Notes: generated by a model not told the origin, from the letters alone. Shown: positions 1-5,306, numbered from the stretch's first letter. The stretch: DNA of 64,000 bases from Candidatus Bathyarchaeia archaeon (GCA_050013255.1 JBEKFP010000001.1:1152001-1216000), one strand, 5' to 3'. Made by a program: numbers and translations.

Positions 1-2
1 AT

Positions 3-665
3 GTAGTAGTGCGCAGCCGGTACACGGAGGACCGCTTGGCCGACGCGGTAGAGAATGGTGTTCAGCAATACCTGATATTGGGCGCTGGCCTCGACACGTT
101 CCCATATCGACAACCTCATTGGGCGAGAGTATTGCGGATTTTCGAAGTAGATCAATCAACGAGCCAGTGTTCGAAGCGCGAACGGTTGGCCATGGCTGGG
201 ATTGAGGTTCCGTCGAATGTCGAGCTAATCGCTTGTGATTTCGAGACCATTTCTCTCCGTGATTGTTTGCGCAGAAGCAGCTTCGATTTTGGGAAACCCG
301 CGTTTCTTTCATGGCTCGGTGTGACGATGTATCTAAGCACGGACGCGATTGATGCAGTATTCAGGTTTGCAAGTTCGCTGCCAAAATCGAGTGAGATTGT
401 CTTCACGTTTGCATCTCCGGCGTCTACAGTGAAGGAAATCGGACGTGAACCCTTGCTTGCCGCATTCACGGCATTCGCTGCAGCACACGGAGAACCATGG
501 CGTACCTTTTTCGAGCCAGACGACTTGGCCCACAAATTGCAAGAGTTAGGTTTTTCGACCGTATCATTTCTTTCGGCTTCGGACGCTGATACACTATATT
601 TCCGAGGTCGTCACGACGGTCTCAAGATACGGCAAAGAGTCGGAATTGTAACCGCTACGGTCTAA
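3..665 (+). CDS. SAM-dependent methyltransferase, LCM/TIGR00027-like (5'-partial at window edge)
   Basis: R-S-R-Y-T-E-D, LILGAGLDT, FEVD and WLGVTMYL motifs. Frame is open back to the window edge. Confidence 0.9.
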   Translation, partial: VVVRSRYTEDRLADAVENGVQQYLILGAGLDTFPYRQPHWARVLRIFEVDQSTSQCSKRERLAMAGIEVPSNVELIACDFETISLRDCLRRSSFDFGKPAFLSWLGVTMYLSTDAIDAVFRFASSLPKSSEIVFTFASPASTVKEIGREPLLAAFTAFAAAHGEPWRTFFEPDDLAHKLQELGFSTVSFLSASDADTLYFRGRHDGLKIRQRVGIVTATV

Positions 666-683
666 ACCTATCCACTCTCAGGA

Positions 684-769
684 TGCGTGTGGCTCTAGCG
701 GTGCGGACGACCAGAATTGAACCGTCGTTTTAGTGCGTGTGTGCGTACCACTAGACCCGCACGCACAAA
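684..769. repeat. tRNA-3'-like/hairpin repeat, complete copy
   Basis: Arms 684-705 and 744-765 are inverted repeats (18/22 match). Minus strand reads GGTTCAATT-CTGGT-CGTCCGC-A-CCG. Internal hairpin GTGCGTGTG...CGCACGCAC. Confidence 0.8.
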
Positions 770-924
770 TTTCTGGCAATTTGGTTCAGGGCTGATGCTT
801 TATCGAGCTAAGGTCTCTTCTCAACCGGTTTAGTAATACCGGAGACTTCCGGGTCTATACAAAATAGAATCTATGAAGAATTAACGTATAATGATTCGGC
901 GTGTTCCTAGCCGAACGATGAGCG

Positions 925-1176
925 ATGGGTTTCGATCCCACAACCGTAATGAACTTCGTCCTAACTATCATAATATTCGTCTTGGGCGTTGCGCTGTATG
1001 GCAGGAAGAAGAACGTCATGACTCTCTACATCGGCATAGCTTTCGGCCTTTTCGCTATCTCTCACCTGGCAACCTTGCTTGACCTTGCTGCCACTCTAAC
1101 AGTTCCGCTCATAGCAGTCCGGGCAATTGCGTACATTGTAGTCATCATTGCATTGCTCACGTTTTGGAAGAAGTGA
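925..1176 (+). CDS. small membrane protein, about 3 TM helices
   Basis: 83-aa ORF with three hydrophobic segments, ending in KK. Confidence 0.8.
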   Translation: MGFDPTTVMNFVLTIIIFVLGVALYGRKKNVMTLYIGIAFGLFAISHLATLLDLAATLTVPLIAVRAIAYIVVIIALLTFWKK

Positions 1177-1192
1177 AACTGGAAAGACTCTC

Positions 1193-1268
1193 GCTTTAGT
1201 GGTTCACCCACACAAAACGGTACGAACAACGATTCAAGTTACGTGGCTCGCACCATTAAACCGACACC
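1193..1268. repeat. tRNA-3'-like/hairpin repeat, inverted degenerate copy
   Basis: Plus strand reads TTCAAGT-TACGT-GGCTCGC-A-CCA-TTAAACC. Reverse complement aligns with 5215-5300. Confidence 0.75.
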
Positions 1269-1331
1269 TATGAAAAGTCTGTAGACTATGCTTTCGTCTC
1301 CGCGGATGGTCTTCTGCGTGGCGTTCAAGTG

Positions 1332-1366
1332 GTGTGTGTGCGCACCAGTAGACCCACACACACAAA
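1332..1366. repeat. hairpin-only copy of the repeat
   Basis: GTGTGTGTG-CGCACCAGTAGACC-CACACACAC-AAA: perfect 9-bp stem, 14-nt loop. Confidence 0.8.
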
Positions 1367-1476
1367 CCGGCGTCGTTCATGTAATTTTGTGTGTATACAA
1401 ATTCCAAATTCCAACAGAACCGTAAAGTAAATTTGTGTGCGATCGTGATGCACTTTCGGAGTTGTGTGTTCGAGCA

Positions 1477-2115
1477 ATGGGGAATGAAGTACTGGATGCC
1501 ATTATGCAGCGACGCAGTATCTATCAGTTCAAGCCTGAGGCAGTCCCTACTGAGAAGATTACTTCCATTTTGGAGGCGGGTCGTTGGGCTCCGTCATATG
1601 CGAATAGTCAGCCATGGGAATTCATCACCGTAACTGATAGCAAATTGAAGCAGGAGGTTGTCGAGATAGCTAAGGAAACTATGGCTGCGCATGCAGGAAT
1701 AGAAGGAGCGCACACAATCATCGCAACATGTGTGGATCCCGAGAAAGATCAATATCACTTCATTGAAGACGGTGCTGTAGCAACACAGAACATGGCTCTG
1801 GCAGCACATAGCCTGGGGTTAGCGACCTATTGGGTCGGGATATTTAGTCTTATGAACGATAGGAAATCAGTCGAGCATAGAATCAAGGAGGTTCTGAACA
1901 TACCTGAAAAAATCCGCGTGATTTCTTTGTTGCCCATAGGTGTGCCTGCGTATAGTGTAGAGAAGCAAAGAAAGCGGTTGGAGGAGATTTGCCACGTTGA
2001 CAAGTATGGCAGCAGACAATCAGGTGTGGGAGTAGAGGATCAGGACAAGAAGACCGAGATAGAAGCACAGAGGCATGGCATGAGAGCGCATTTGCCCCGC
2101 GTCGCACCAACTTGA
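1477..2115 (+). CDS. nitroreductase family protein
   Basis: RRSIYQF, WAPSYANSQPWEF, QNMALAAHSLGL. ATG 1477 preferred over the track start at 1435. Confidence 0.93.
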   Translation: MGNEVLDAIMQRRSIYQFKPEAVPTEKITSILEAGRWAPSYANSQPWEFITVTDSKLKQEVVEIAKETMAAHAGIEGAHTIIATCVDPEKDQYHFIEDGAVATQNMALAAHSLGLATYWVGIFSLMNDRKSVEHRIKEVLNIPEKIRVISLLPIGVPAYSVEKQRKRLEEICHVDKYGSRQSGVGVEDQDKKTEIEAQRHGMRAHLPRVAPT

Positions 2116-2150
2116 TTGATTGGATCATGAGCCAACGTCAGGAGTGGCGG

Positions 2151-2163
2151 GCACACACACAAA
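2151..2163. repeat. remnant right arm of the repeat (GCACACACACAAA)
   Basis: Matches the CACACACACAAA end of other copies and lies between convergent stop codons. Very short. Confidence 0.4.
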
Positions 2164-2778
2164 TCAGCGTTTTCGCGCTACAACGGAAAATACGTGCCAA
2201 TGCTTCCTTCGTTCATGAAGTGCTGGCCTGTCATCTTTCTCCTGTTCGAGAAAGAATTCGATCTCAAATGGACGCAGTAGTGCCTTAACTTGCTTAGCGG
2301 TATGAAATGTCCCATTTGAACTGCGAGCCCAATCATCGTGAACGCCGAAGAAATGGCCTGAAAGCCTTCCTCCAGTACGAATCGAGGTTACGATCTTTCG
2401 CCAGAAAGAATGGAACCGTTTCGGTGAGCAAAACGGTAGGCTGTAACTTGCATTTACAAGATCACATCTGGGTAAGGATGATCTCTCGAATGAAGTCACA
2501 CGGGTTCTTAGTTGCTCTCTATGCGTTGGGGATACGTTAGATCGGATCCATCTAATCGCTCCAGCCTCACTGTCTACAGCCAGCACTTTCCAGCCTCGTC
2601 GCAGCAACTCTGACGTATCCCGACCACCTCCACATCCCAAATCAATCGCAAAACGCATCTTCTTTCGTGACGGTTCAGCGTCAAACGAAGAAAGTGCTTT
2701 TTGCAGGGTTTCGTAAGGAGGACGCTTTGAAGTCGCTTTGTAATAATCAAGCCAACGTGGTTCTCTGCGTTTGGACAT
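2164..2778 (-). CDS. class I SAM-dependent methyltransferase
   Basis: AIDLGCGGGRD motif I, LAVD, SLPFC, GHFFG. Likely start MSKRREP at 2778. Confidence 0.9.
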   Translation of the reverse strand: MSKRREPRWLDYYKATSKRPPYETLQKALSSFDAEPSRKKMRFAIDLGCGGGRDTSELLRRGWKVLAVDSEAGAIRWIRSNVSPTHREQLRTRVTSFERSSLPRCDLVNASYSLPFCSPKRFHSFWRKIVTSIRTGGRLSGHFFGVHDDWARSSNGTFHTAKQVKALLRPFEIEFFLEQEKDDRPALHERRKHWHVFSVVARKR

Positions 2779-2966
2779 AGAAGCAAAGTACAGCGGTTCT
2801 CGCTGATAACTATCGCCTAGATCCTCAGCTCTACAGTTGTAGAAGATACTTCCACTAACAGGTGGGGATCGTAAGCTGACTCTCGGTAGTAGTCGTAACG
2901 ACACTAGTCAACGACGCCTCCCATCCCCTATTTCATCGGTTCTTCTCCTTTCGGAAATTAGACAGC

Positions 2967-3191
2967 GTGCTTAAAACGCAACACGCTGACGCAATGATTA
3001 TGGTTCTAACCAGTTACGAGTGGGTTGCCGTTCTCATAATCATCGTGGTTATTGCTCTGGCGTATTTGTTCTGGCGCTCCTTTTCGCGCAGAATGGAAGG
3101 TACACAAAGACCACAGACGACCACTGGTGCAGGATGGAACAGTCGCATACGGAGTAATCAGACGCAAGACATCAAATCGAAAATCAGCTGA
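2967..3191 (+). CDS. small single-TM hypothetical protein
   Basis: One hydrophobic helix followed by a basic/polar tail. Start could be ATG 2994. Confidence 0.55.
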   Translation: MLKTQHADAMIMVLTSYEWVAVLIIIVVIALAYLFWRSFSRRMEGTQRPQTTTGAGWNSRIRSNQTQDIKSKIS

Positions 3192-3319
3192 CACATAGAT
3201 GCAAAGTTGACGACTGATAGCAGCTTTCACGGCAACCTGAAACAATGATTCACCTGTTTATGCGATTCTAGTTGGCCCAAGTACTTTATACCAACCAGCC
3301 CAATGAGGCTGTGATTGTG

Positions 3320-3583
3320 ATGACGACAGGTTTTCATGAGTTCGACAACAGAATCCATGACTTGGCTGAACGGGAAAATGAGTGTGACGGCCTGTTCGAA
3401 GAAATTAAGAATGGCAACGGCGACAAATCACTGCGCTATCTTGCACTGAGAGATTCCTGCAAAGAGTTGAGAAACAAAATTTTCAGGAGCGCTAGGTCAG
3501 CGGGACTAACGCGGGAAAGAATCAAGACGGAGATCAAGGAAGCAAGAAACCAGACGACCGCCACTAACGCGAAACACACTTAG
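3320..3583 (+). CDS. hypothetical helical protein
   Basis: Charged helical ORF. ATG 3320 preferred over the track start at 3272. Confidence 0.6.
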   Translation: MTTGFHEFDNRIHDLAERENECDGLFEEIKNGNGDKSLRYLALRDSCKELRNKIFRSARSAGLTRERIKTEIKEARNQTTATNAKHT

Positions 3584-3667
3584 GAAGAATCGATAGAATC
3601 ACCCAGATTTTTTGCGGAACTGGTTCAAGAGCTGAAATAGGCCCCCGGTCGTCAGTCGGTCACTTCA

Positions 3668-3699
3668 TGTGTGTGTGCGCACGACCAGACGCACACAAA
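3668..3699. repeat. hairpin-only degenerate copy of the repeat
   Basis: TGTGTGCG(3672-3679)-CACGACCAGA-CGCACACA(3690-3697): perfect 8-bp stem. Confidence 0.7.
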
Positions 3700-3741
3700 C
3701 TTTCTGTCAGTCGAACCAACTACGGCATACACGCGATAATA

Positions 3742-4185
3742 TCATTCGACGGTGAAGAGTTCGTGGTCAGGCATTCGATGAAGGGCAAGTGCGATTTCTT
3801 GAACCTCGCGTTGAGGCGAACTTGCGGAGACTCGAGAGAGTAGGGCGGCGGTTTTCTCGGTGGGGCCAATTAGGATGACGCGGTTGCCCTTTCGAAATCT
3901 TACTTTGATGCGTTGAGACTCTTTTACTATGATATTTCCCTTGCCTAAAGTGCAGCCACTGGATACCTGAATACCATCTAGCATGCAGGATTCCGGTGGC
4001 GATTTCCTGGTCCAAACTGTCGCAGATAACTCATGAAGTCGCTTAGGCTTCAACCTTTGAATGGCTATCACGCCCATCCGAAGACCAAATACTAGGTACG
4101 GACCTAGGTGACCATGAAAATCCACGCCCTCCTTCAGCAGACGCTGGCGGCCTGAGGCTCGTTTCTTTGTCACGGTGGTGCCCAC
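3742..4185 (-). CDS. FmdE/FwdE family metal-binding protein
   Basis: FHGHLGP, GLRMG and C-x-x-DGIQ-x-SSGCTLGKGN signature. Confidence 0.92.
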   Translation of the reverse strand: MGTTVTKKRASGRQRLLKEGVDFHGHLGPYLVFGLRMGVIAIQRLKPKRLHELSATVWTRKSPPESCMLDGIQVSSGCTLGKGNIIVKESQRIKVRFRKGNRVILIGPTEKTAALLSRVSASSPQREVQEIALALHRMPDHELFTVE

Positions 4186-4652
4186 TTGCGCAAGAGAAGA
4201 TCCCCAAGATGAAAACGCCTAGTGAGAATATCAACAACAGCAGCGCAAATCACATTCTCAACAGTCAAGAGAGCCAGAATAGTCTGCACAGCCACAGCTG
4301 GAACATGAAGAACTAATGTATCAACGAGATAAATCCACGGAGCCTGAATCAAGACCCACGCAACCAAACCTGCCAATACGGGTCGGAGCTTGCGGGAAAA
4401 GACCGCAATGAACAACCCCAAGAGCCCGTTTCCGACCACGATCGTCGGGTCTGACCTAATCATAGCCACATATGACCCTCCAACTAAGCCCGTGATGAGT
4501 CCGGATAGAGGACCACCCGCAACTCCAGCCAACATTATGCCTGTTTGAAAAAAGTGGATTCCCGTTCCGAACAGGAATGGTACCATTAAAAGACTAAGCA
4601 CAACTGTCACCGCACTAATCCCAGCCGTGAACGCCACAAGCCTGCTGTTCAT
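4170..4652 (-). CDS. ECF transporter S component
   Basis: Multi-TM protein with the GGPLSGLITGLVGG ECF-S-like motif. ATG at 4652. Confidence 0.75.
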   Translation of the reverse strand: MNSRLVAFTAGISAVTVVLSLLMVPFLFGTGIHFFQTGIMLAGVAGGPLSGLITGLVGGSYVAMIRSDPTIVVGNGLLGLFIAVFSRKLRPVLAGLVAWVLIQAPWIYLVDTLVLHVPAVAVQTILALLTVENVICAAVVDILTRRFHLGDLLLRKWAPP

Positions 4653-4662
4653 CGATTGCAAA

Positions 4663-4690
4663 GTATTACCGTTTCACCGAATCGTAATAA
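4663..4690. promoter_or_regulatory. putative NikR operator
   Basis: GTATTA-N16-TAATAA dyad with the same geometry as the E. coli NikR site GTATGA-N16-TCATAC. Lies between the divergent ECF-S and nikR genes. Confidence 0.6.
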
Positions 4691-4739
4691 TGATATTAAA
4701 AAGTACTGACCAATTCCAAGATGTTGGAGATAACCCGCC

Positions 4740-5147
4740 TTGGTTAGGGTAGAAAGGATTAGTTTCTCAACGCCGCCGGCACTACTAGAGCAATTTGACG
4801 ATTCCCTCAGAACACTCGGGTACAAGGATCGGTCGACGGCCCTGCAGATCGCAATGAGGAACTTCATCACAGAATACTCTTGGAGAAAGGAAGCAGGAAC
4901 ACCCGGAGCAGGAACGATCTTGCTGACTTACAACCATGAATCACATGGTCTTCAAGAAGCCTTGACGGACATCCAACATCAATTCCGCGACATCGTGAAC
5001 TCAACTACTCACATTCATCTTGACGAAACTCGGTGTCTGGAGATAATATCCGTCAAGGGGAGAATGGAGCGCATTCAAGCATTGGCAAAGAACATCATGA
5101 AGACACGTGGGGTAACGCAGCTCAGGCTATCAACCGTTGCTGTCTAG
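4740..5147 (+). CDS. nikR: nickel-responsive regulator NikR
   Basis: RHH N-terminus (RISFS...GYKDRS) and C-terminal YNH, QH, HIHLD...CLE nickel ligands. Confidence 0.93.
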   Translation: MVRVERISFSTPPALLEQFDDSLRTLGYKDRSTALQIAMRNFITEYSWRKEAGTPGAGTILLTYNHESHGLQEALTDIQHQFRDIVNSTTHIHLDETRCLEIISVKGRMERIQALAKNIMKTRGVTQLRLSTVAV

Positions 5148-5154
5148 AGAGTAA

Positions 5155-5200
5155 GTGTGCGGTACTATTAATGCAGGGAGGCAAATTTGAACCGTCGTCG
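5155..5200. repeat. degenerate tandem copy of the repeat
   Basis: AATTTGAACCGTCGTCG at 5184-5200 is identical to 5247-5263 and is preceded by a decayed GTGTGCGG arm. Confidence 0.7.
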
Positions 5201-5214
5201 GTAGAGTAATTTTC

Positions 5215-5300
5215 TGTGTGTGTGGGTCTAATGGTGCGGGCAACGTAATTTGAACCGTCGTCGTTCGTCGTTAGAAAGTGTGTGTGCGCAACAATAGACG
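5215..5300. repeat. tRNA-3'-like/hairpin repeat, best-preserved left arm
   Basis: Minus strand reads GGTTCAAAT-TACGT-TGCCCGC-A-CCA-TTAGACC-CACACACACA. Right end on plus strand is GTGTGTGTGCGCAACAATAGAC. Confidence 0.8.
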
Positions 5301-5306
5301 AGCTAT

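Follow-up and report, generated by a model that had tools for sequence, protein, structure and literature searches.

Three tRNA-like sites at the start of the window

We analysed a 64,000-nt stretch of DNA from a Candidatus Bathyarchaeia archaeon (hereafter the window), which corresponds to C1:1152001-1216000 of a 2.46-Mb genome in three contigs (C1–C3) with a GC content of 50 %. Near its start lie three 23-nt sequences that resemble the 3′ end of a tRNA, at 699-721 (minus strand), 1233-1255 (plus strand) and 5232-5254 (minus strand), here termed sites 1, 2 and 3, which are very probably occupied landing sites of casposon-type transposons. A search of the window with the pattern TTCAANTNNNGTNGNCCGCACC, allowing up to two mismatches, returned three matches where shuffled sequences led us to expect 0.06; these are the copies that a sequence-only reading had pointed out, including site 1, which ends in CCG and not CCA.

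All three sites have the same build, namely a leader motif, a 14-nt core and, from position +15 counted from the start of the core, the terminus of an element. At site 1 the core (692-705, minus strand; reverse complement CGCACCGCTAGAGC) starts with CGCA and consists of CGC-A-CCG plus seven nucleotides, in the same register as the perfect 14-bp duplications around the two casposon-like elements described below; by analogy with these, it is the segment that a casposase-type insertion would duplicate. Its T-loop-like leader module (706-721, minus strand; reverse complement TTCAATTCTGGTCGTC) places TCAAT/TCAAAT at −15 to −10 relative to the core. This position fits the requirement of the Aciduliprofundum boonei casposase, for which mutagenesis has shown that TCAAATC must stand 9-15 bp upstream from the insertion point and that the first 2 nt of the duplication are required (PMC6614799). 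The core is adjoined by an element terminus at 684-691 (TGCGTGTG), a degenerate CACAC... on the other strand, whilst beyond the leader the plus strand (722-757) reads as a spacer and (GT)n run (722-743), followed by another, oppositely oriented core (CGTACCACTAGACC, 744-757). Two inverted cores thus enclose a 46-nt piece made of terminus plus leader, an arrangement that we call the long form of the repeat and that sites 1 and 3 share.

Site 2 consists of a leader module at 1233-1248 (TTCAAGTTACGTGGCT, plus strand) and a core at 1249-1262 (CGCACCATTAAACC, plus strand), the latter sharing 13 of 14 nt with a core at C1:1151732, just before the window. At site 3, where 22 of 23 nt agree with the family consensus, the leader (5239-5254, minus strand; reverse complement TTCAAATTACGTTGCC) precedes a core (5225-5238, minus strand; reverse complement CGCACCATTAGACC) identical to the 14-mer that flanks one of the casposon-like elements, and the core is adjoined by a (TG)5 element terminus at 5215-5224. 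Directly downstream, in the sense of site 3, is a degenerate second copy of a landing site (5163-5201, minus strand; reverse complement ...GACGACGGTTCAAATTTGCCTCC followed by CTGCATTAATAGTA). What comes after the core differs between the sites: CACACGCA at site 1, GACACCTATG... at site 2, an end that was also found at three other cores, and CACACACACA at site 3.

Geometry and origin of the repeat family

Across the genome, TTCAANT and CGCACC stand exactly 9 nt apart in 38 places, compared with 0.4 expected per spacing, and all other spacings from 0 to 30 nt were at background level. Two of the 38 resemble genuine tRNA 3′ ends, which leaves ∼36 copies of a family of the form TTCAAAT-N9-CGCACC; searches with nhmmer gave 57 family members, clustered in islands. 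The sequence-only reading had described three diverged repeat copies that keep an exact T-loop-to-CCA spacing. The copies are real and the spacing holds genome-wide, but their number had been understated, with dozens present at mobile-element junctions. A second set of sites was selected without reference to the T-loop, using CGCACCA-N7-CACAC, and comprised 18 sites preceded by GTGTG and 39 others. Among these 39, TTCAAAT was found at exactly −16 to −10 in 24, and in none at offsets of 1 to 3 nt to either side.

Positions −16 to −10 and +1 to +7 are kept, and positions −9 to −1 and +8 to +14 drift. The 12 nt in the middle had been said to differ between copies, which is true of nine of them, where only a weak consensus of T.CG.TGCC can be recognized, and not of the last three (CGC), which are invariant. 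Moreover, conservation runs on beyond CCA, a feature missed earlier, through seven semi-conserved nucleotides and then into a CACAC run, with a CA-type terminus at +15 in 30 of the 38 T-type sites. Sites occur in intergenic positions and in both orientations relative to neighbouring genes. We also considered priming of a retro-element at a tRNA-like CCA end, which was set aside given the conservation beyond CCA and junctions that are DNA-transposon scars.

As had been noted before, pairing of the T-stem is lacking: a mean of 2.4 of 5 positions pair in the 36 copies, compared with 2.6 for shuffled partners, whereas two real or real-like tRNA ends pair at 5 of 5. With neither a paired T-stem nor a 5′ acceptor strand, the copies do not form a tRNA cloverleaf; within the window ARAGORN found no tRNA, and Rfam gave no match at E-values up to 1. 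Among the host tRNAs, the one whose 3′ end comes closest has a GCGGCCG acceptor and lies at C1:1132371 (TTCAAATCCCGGCGGCCGCACCA); this end shares 18 of 23 nt with the consensus, so that the suggested derivation of CGC-A from a tRNA starting with GCG is a reasonable one. This tRNA end is itself followed by a CA-type remnant (C1:1132479). Longer 3′ fragments of the same tRNA (...GAATCCCGGCGGCCGCACCA) were seen at C3:239100-239143 and C2:287290-287310, beside leader-core sites and CA termini.

The closest public relatives of the host are Candidatus Bathyarchaeia metagenome-assembled genomes (MAGs) from peat. Its genome has a listed completeness of 100 % and a listed contamination of 8.55 %, part of which may stem from mobile DNA present in duplicate and not from mixed bins. 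Nearly every tRNA gene has at least one intron, some at non-canonical positions (e.g. C1:1151491-1151613, 388 nt before the window), such that ARAGORN without intron mode recovered three clean tRNAs and the Rfam model 19; CCA is encoded in most tRNA genes. The repeat family was present in 11 of the 12 genomes of the genus sampled first, and the strict pattern in 15 of 61 genomes of the order, belonging to several families, with a reversed control pattern found in none.

Casposases, paired cores and the variable island

Two genes for Cas1 are present in the genome, both in repeat-rich islands, and encode proteins of 407 and 404 aa that are 60 % identical, the gene for the 407-aa protein being at L082:13417-14640 on the minus strand. 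The best solved match was the casposase of Methanosarcina mazei (6OPM), with an E-value of 3.9e-74 over residues 4-402, which is full length and includes the C-terminal domain; the best match to a CRISPR Cas1 reached only 5.9e-24. No Cas2 was found in the genome, and what is present is a Cas1-family integrase with a C-terminal helix-turn-helix (HTH) region that is linked neither to Cas2 nor to CRISPR.

The first Cas1-bearing element, casposon 1, occupies C1:1330275-1346555 (16.3 kb) and has inverted repeats of ∼130 nt with 82 % identity, starting with CACACAC. On the two sides of this element the 14-bp sequence GGTCTAATGGTGCG, which is CGCACCATTAGACC read on the other strand, is perfectly duplicated, and a leader (T-loop) module adjoins one of the two copies. 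Casposon 2 (C3:228079-239043) has inverted repeats that are unrelated to those of casposon 1 (CCGCCCCCGCC... and ...GGCGGGGGCGG) and a perfect duplication, CGCACCAGCATACC, which likewise lies beside a leader module. Additionally, a 5.2-kb element at C1:716105-721311 has 74-nt inverted repeats that start exactly 7 nt after CGCACCA, with a flanking repeat of 13 of 14 nt; two more ends of its family start at the same offset. Three unrelated families of inverted repeats are therefore found at the same type of target, and at the level of sequence they combine terminal inverted repeats, a 14-bp target duplication and the T-loop/CGCA target geometry.

As no family B polymerase encoded by the elements was found, we class them as casposon-like and polymerase-less and not as canonical casposons; the genome contains no match to PF03175, and its matches to PF00136 are all on contig C2, away from the elements. 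Their cargo is defence-like, including an AIPR protein, a TIR-domain protein, a DNA methylase with a DndB-like protein and a GHKL-type ATPase. The 5.2-kb element encodes a protein of 1134 aa without a Pfam match, a MauJ-like protein and a 136-aa open reading frame (ORF), and a Shedu SduA_C-like gene lies just outside it.

For every leader-core site we searched downstream, within 45 kb, for the same 14-mer. This gave 10 exact pairs of a leader-core with a core preceded by GT (GT-core), compared with 1.7 expected, and when only the nearest GT-core was considered, six of 18 were exact pairs against 0.9 expected. Given this excess, the abundance of particular heptamers is an unlikely cause of the pairs. 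Paired cores bound inserts of 0.6, 1.6, 1.75, 2.0, 2.4, 3.4, 4.3, 11 and 16 kb, most of which have CACAC...GTGTG ends and lack Cas1. At least eight are Cas1-less units of 0.6-5 kb that have the same scar as the casposons, many of them carrying ordinary genes. For the 4.3-kb element at C1:37914 we attempted an empty-site check, for which the flank proved too poorly conserved in relatives. A different upstream module, ...ACGACGTTCCGATTTTGAACGG(A/C), directly precedes the core at the ends of C1:1352982-1355396 and in another genome (G074:C40, L125 2700-2760); it is part of an inverted repeat of ∼60 nt, and its T-loop hexamer points the other way and stands in another register. We had also read GTGTG-core-CACAC as a hairpin of an IS200/IS605 element, a repetitive extragenic palindrome or a miniature inverted-repeat transposable element, and rejected this, as the apparent hairpin consists of two element termini around a duplicated core, which is why the core occurs in either orientation between the GT and CA runs.

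The same arrangement was found elsewhere in the order. In two genomes from two other families (G038 and G047) a leader and core are followed by a casposase element with a (CA)n end, a (GT)n run and an identical core: on G038:C14 the duplication CGCACCAAGGTACC surrounds 9.4 kb containing a casposase, and on G047:C50 the duplication CTCACCAGCTGTGG surrounds 9 kb containing a casposase, with inverted repeats of 45 nt that are 98 % identical. In G074, which is another species, an element end that is 99 % identical over 1.2 kb lies beside a different core, a sequence comparison that argues for recent movement. By contrast, no CGCACCA-type cores or inverted repeats were found within 20 kb on either side of the casposase locus of G045, for which reason this lineage probably uses another target. 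In one further genome, five consecutive segments of 0.3-1 kb (G011:C3:231893-235309; L089) match five distant loci of the genome studied here. This mosaic of single-gene units is without the TTCAAAT-N9-CGCACC repeat family, and one of its spacers has a different tRNA-like T-arm, GTGGGATTCGAATCCAC, which may be the landing site of another lineage.

Within the window, the sites belong to a 5.7-kb variable island (C1:1151620-1157304), of which positions 1-5304 are the in-window part; we delimit it in this way because it is absent from a relative (G004), in which window position 5305 follows immediately upon the 3′ end of tRNA-Val. The island can be read as some six units in a row, with cores between them. 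The first three contain an LCM-type methyltransferase, a small membrane protein and a truncated element end, respectively, and are followed by a nitroreductase unit, a unit with a methyltransferase and small ORFs, and a unit with FmdE-like, ECF-S-like and NikR genes. The membrane-protein unit (758-1232, plus strand; ORF at 925-1176) starts with CGCACGCACAAA and ends with CACCCACACAAAACGGTACGAACAACGA, leading into site 2. On the other side of site 2 is the truncated end of another element family (1263-1340, plus strand; GACACCTATGAAAAGTCT ... GTGGTGTGTGTG), and the same end begins exactly 14 nt after the CGCA of three other cores in the genome. This end, CACACCTATGAAAAGTCT... (window 1263-1330), is also seen at C1:197649, C1:633267 and C2:746088. 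In two copies it opens with a conserved ORF of 21 codons (MKSL(V/I)..HxIL..W.FCVAFRP.), which in the window copy meets a stop after four codons. No inverted partner of the CACACCTATGAAAAGTCT end was found, and ∼300 nt at 91 % identity are common to two copies.

The next core (1341-1354, plus strand; CGCACCAGTAGACC) has (GT)n before it and (CA)n after it, which is the right-junction type or short form. It is possible that it is the duplication partner of the core at C1:1151732, 1595 bp upstream, as the two match at 13 of 14 nt, though their heptamer is the commonest one. The nitroreductase unit (1355-2144, plus strand; ORF at 1435-2115) starts with CACACACACAAA. The block recurs with 91-93 % identity, but with different neighbours, in two related MAGs from peat, and its left border is a repeat of the family in all three genomes, in three different forms and with differing orientation. 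It is followed by a junction at 2145-2163, where a degenerate half core, TGGCGGG, precedes CACACACACAAA once more. A further junction (3666-3704, plus strand), consisting of (GT)n, a degenerate core (CGCACGACCAGACG, 3678-3691) and CACACAAAC, divides the methyltransferase unit from the last one. In the latter, the FmdE-like, ECF-transporter S-component-like and NikR genes (3742-5147) form one unit between two cores, which may represent metal-related cargo. The right edge of the island (5255-5300) comprises a spacer (reverse complement ...ACGACGAACGACGACGG), (GT)n at 5278-5286 and a degenerate core, CGCAACAATAGACG, at 5287-5300. In G004 the NikR and TMEM175-like genes are on different contigs, and the neighbours of NikR differ in two other relatives (G011 and G008). 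An integron-like reading of such breaks in synteny at the repeats was rejected, as there is no nearby integrase and inverted repeats together with 14-bp duplications explain the junctions.

Probable occupied landing sites and comparison with known systems

We put the probability that the three 23-mers are occupied landing sites of casposon-type transposons at about 85 %. Each site would comprise a leader module with the T-loop motif TTCAAAT and, 9 nt further on, a 14-bp core made of CGCACCA plus seven nucleotides. Presumably the casposase would recognize the T-loop motif and the CGCA start, cut the strands 14 bp apart and join the 3′ ends of the element, mostly CACAC...GTGTG, after which gap repair would duplicate the 14-mer. 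The left copy would retain the leader and stay a target, the right copy would come to lie behind ...GTGTG, and repeated use would give rise to chains of core, insert and core. The sites would derive from, or mimic, the 3′ end of the host tRNA with the acceptor stem GCGGCCG, an origin that would account for a layout of 7+5+7+1+3 nt without a tRNA fold. The spacing would have been kept because the enzyme measures it, and positions −9 to −1 and +8 to +14 would have drifted because they carry little weight in recognition. Of this account, the analysis itself shows the geometry, the duplications, the inverted repeats, the casposase genes and the differences in presence between relatives, and the features that casposases read are taken from published work.

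The earlier reading was partly supported by these results. It had proposed that a protein still reads both ends of the repeat, being either a recombinase or an RNA-processing enzyme acting on 3′ untranslated regions (UTRs), and the former fits the target geometry of casposases as well as the two casposase-bearing elements at such sites. The latter found no support, in view of sites in both orientations, the lack of tRNA-like pairing and a conservation that continues past CCA into the duplicated 14-mer and the terminus.

Several observations weigh against the sites being landing sites of this kind, or limit what can be claimed for those in the window. Pfam scans of the element ORFs revealed no polymerase, which is a defining feature of casposons. 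No partner 14-mer with at most one mismatch was found for sites 1 and 3, nor is there a clean 14-bp duplication at the island borders at tRNA-Val; because neighbouring cores are often inverted or differ at two or three positions, the window junctions are old or rearranged. Among the genomes of the order, several rich in sites have no detected casposase and several with a casposase have no sites, in a tally based on fragmented MAGs and a strict pattern search. That the casposases studied here would recognize the same features is inferred by analogy with distant enzymes. Finally, leader modules are often found within an element, ∼30 nt from its end, and some leader copies may thus belong to element termini and not be chromosomal targets.

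This last point leads to the alternative that survives best, although we think it rather unlikely as a general account, namely that most leader-plus-core copies belong to the transposons themselves, where the terminal 50-60 nt of a small element family would read (CA)n-spacer-ACGACGACGG-TTCAAAT-N9-core. The motif would then be a casposase-binding site within the end, or a travelling landing pad, and the window sites would be element ends or solo ends. In keeping with this, (CA)n-spacer-leader-core recurs in tandem with a period of 59-65 nt, and the unit lies directly inside left element ends in the genome studied (C1:37914, C1:1355411) and in G038; the element at C1:37914 carries an inverted counterpart in its right end, and sites 1 and 3 show the long form, an inverted core preceding them by 46 nt. 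Set against these observations, casposons 1 and 2 and the 5.2-kb element have leader-free, unrelated inverted repeats and yet sit at leader-plus-core sites, and a real tRNA 3′ end (C1:1132479) shows the same layout followed by a CA-type remnant. As both explanations need a casposase that reads the motif, this one refines the landing-site explanation rather than excluding it.

It is very improbable that the sites are relics of att sites of tyrosine integrases, that is, 3′ halves of tRNA genes displaced by integrative plasmids or viruses. The 3′ parts of tRNAs are the classic archaeal att sites, a tRNA 3′ fragment of ∼26 nt lies near C3:239100, and the genome has three tyrosine recombinase (PF00589) genes, two of them beside tRNA genes. 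None of the three, however, is found within the islands or close to them; no more than 14 bp, T-loop not included, are duplicated, inverted repeats are present at the termini of the inserts, both orientations occur within one island, and the Cas1 elements lie precisely at the sites. The two genes that adjoin tRNA genes (C3:28755-29228 and C2:259232-259651) probably belong to ordinary integrated elements unrelated to the repeat family. Less probable still are functional tRNA-like RNA modules, such as 3′-UTR ends read by RNase P/Z, a CCA-adding or another RNA-processing enzyme, for which the T-loop consensus, discriminator and CCA in canonical register and the intergenic positions would speak, but which are contradicted by chance-level T-stem pairing, the missing 5′ acceptor strand and ARAGORN and Rfam matches, both orientations relative to flanking genes, and conservation beyond CCA into a duplication at the DNA level.

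Returning to the landing-site explanation, we infer mobilization in trans for the Cas1-less units, and for the landing pads a spread as passengers within element ends, the latter being suggested by those pads that lie ∼30 nt inside such ends. Taken further, the ends of Cas1-less units would contain a mobile landing pad, each insertion would plant a new target and casposases would build growing repeat-insert-repeat chains, a scenario that we put forward tentatively and hold to be less probable than not.

The pattern has a known mechanism, but its scale here is unusual. With ∼36 diverged sites in one genome and more in other families, it amounts to a natural mutagenesis map of a casposase target, and the kept and drifting positions agree with in vitro measurements on a distant enzyme. 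In the literature searched we found no description of casposons in Bathyarchaeia or of natural Cas1-less casposon derivatives, the term mini-casposon being used in print for laboratory constructs. Nor did it describe casposases serving polymerase-less elements, small Cas1-less cargo units, or a tRNA-derived target that is multiplied across a genome and marks the borders of variable, defence-rich islands. The sites also provide a practical rule for locating mobile islands in Bathyarchaeia genomes.

Amongst known systems, the casposons of M. mazei family 2 (e.g. MetMaz1FA1A3-C2) are similar in having the closest solved casposase and a 14-bp duplication with CGCA in the same register, CGCA comprising the last nucleotides of the acceptor and the discriminator of a tRNA. 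In M. mazei the 14 duplicated bp always start with CGCA, the final 4 bp of tRNA-Leu; both the HTH domain and ∼30 bp of tRNA sequence upstream are needed, and insertions in tandem as well as solo inverted repeats are found (PMC4779613, PMC6977970). The elements described here differ in that they lack a family B polymerase, in that the duplication also covers the genomically encoded CCA, and in the presence of many small Cas1-less cargo units with the same scar; moreover, the target in M. mazei is one tRNA gene or a few intergenic sites, compared with ∼36 pseudo-tRNA copies per genome here.

The casposon of A. boonei, AciBoo-C1, targets the 3′ end of tRNA-Pro and generates duplications of 14-15 bp, and apart from the upstream motif and the first 2 nt, the rest of the duplication and most of the inverted repeat are dispensable, only the last few nucleotides of the latter being needed (PMC6614799). 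The likeness lies in the TCAAAT found at −15 to −10 in every copy here and in the 14-bp duplication. Host phylum and tRNA identity differ, the duplication starts with CG here and with CC there, and recognition in the present case would be by analogy.

Single-gene units between short recombination-type sites, with an order that is shuffled among relatives, also recall the attC sites and cassette arrays of integrons. There is, however, no IntI-type integrase at the islands, the sites are target duplications and transposon termini and not folded attC sites, and their orientations are mixed. The junction of leader and repeat in CRISPR loci, where Cas1-Cas2 integrates spacers, is comparable in having a leader-proximal motif that directs insertion at a fixed distance, a short repeat that is duplicated, and chains of repeat, insert and repeat. 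In contrast, Cas2, a regular array and short unique spacers are all absent here, and the inserts are transposon-like, 0.05-16 kb in length, with termini of their own and 14-bp cores. The comparison is nevertheless relevant to the question of how a transposon could give rise to a leader-repeat junction and to a repeat array, and if the landing pad were indeed mobile, the system would be an extant link between site-specific casposons and CRISPR arrays and, at the same time, a Cas1-driven platform for gene capture that resembles integrons.

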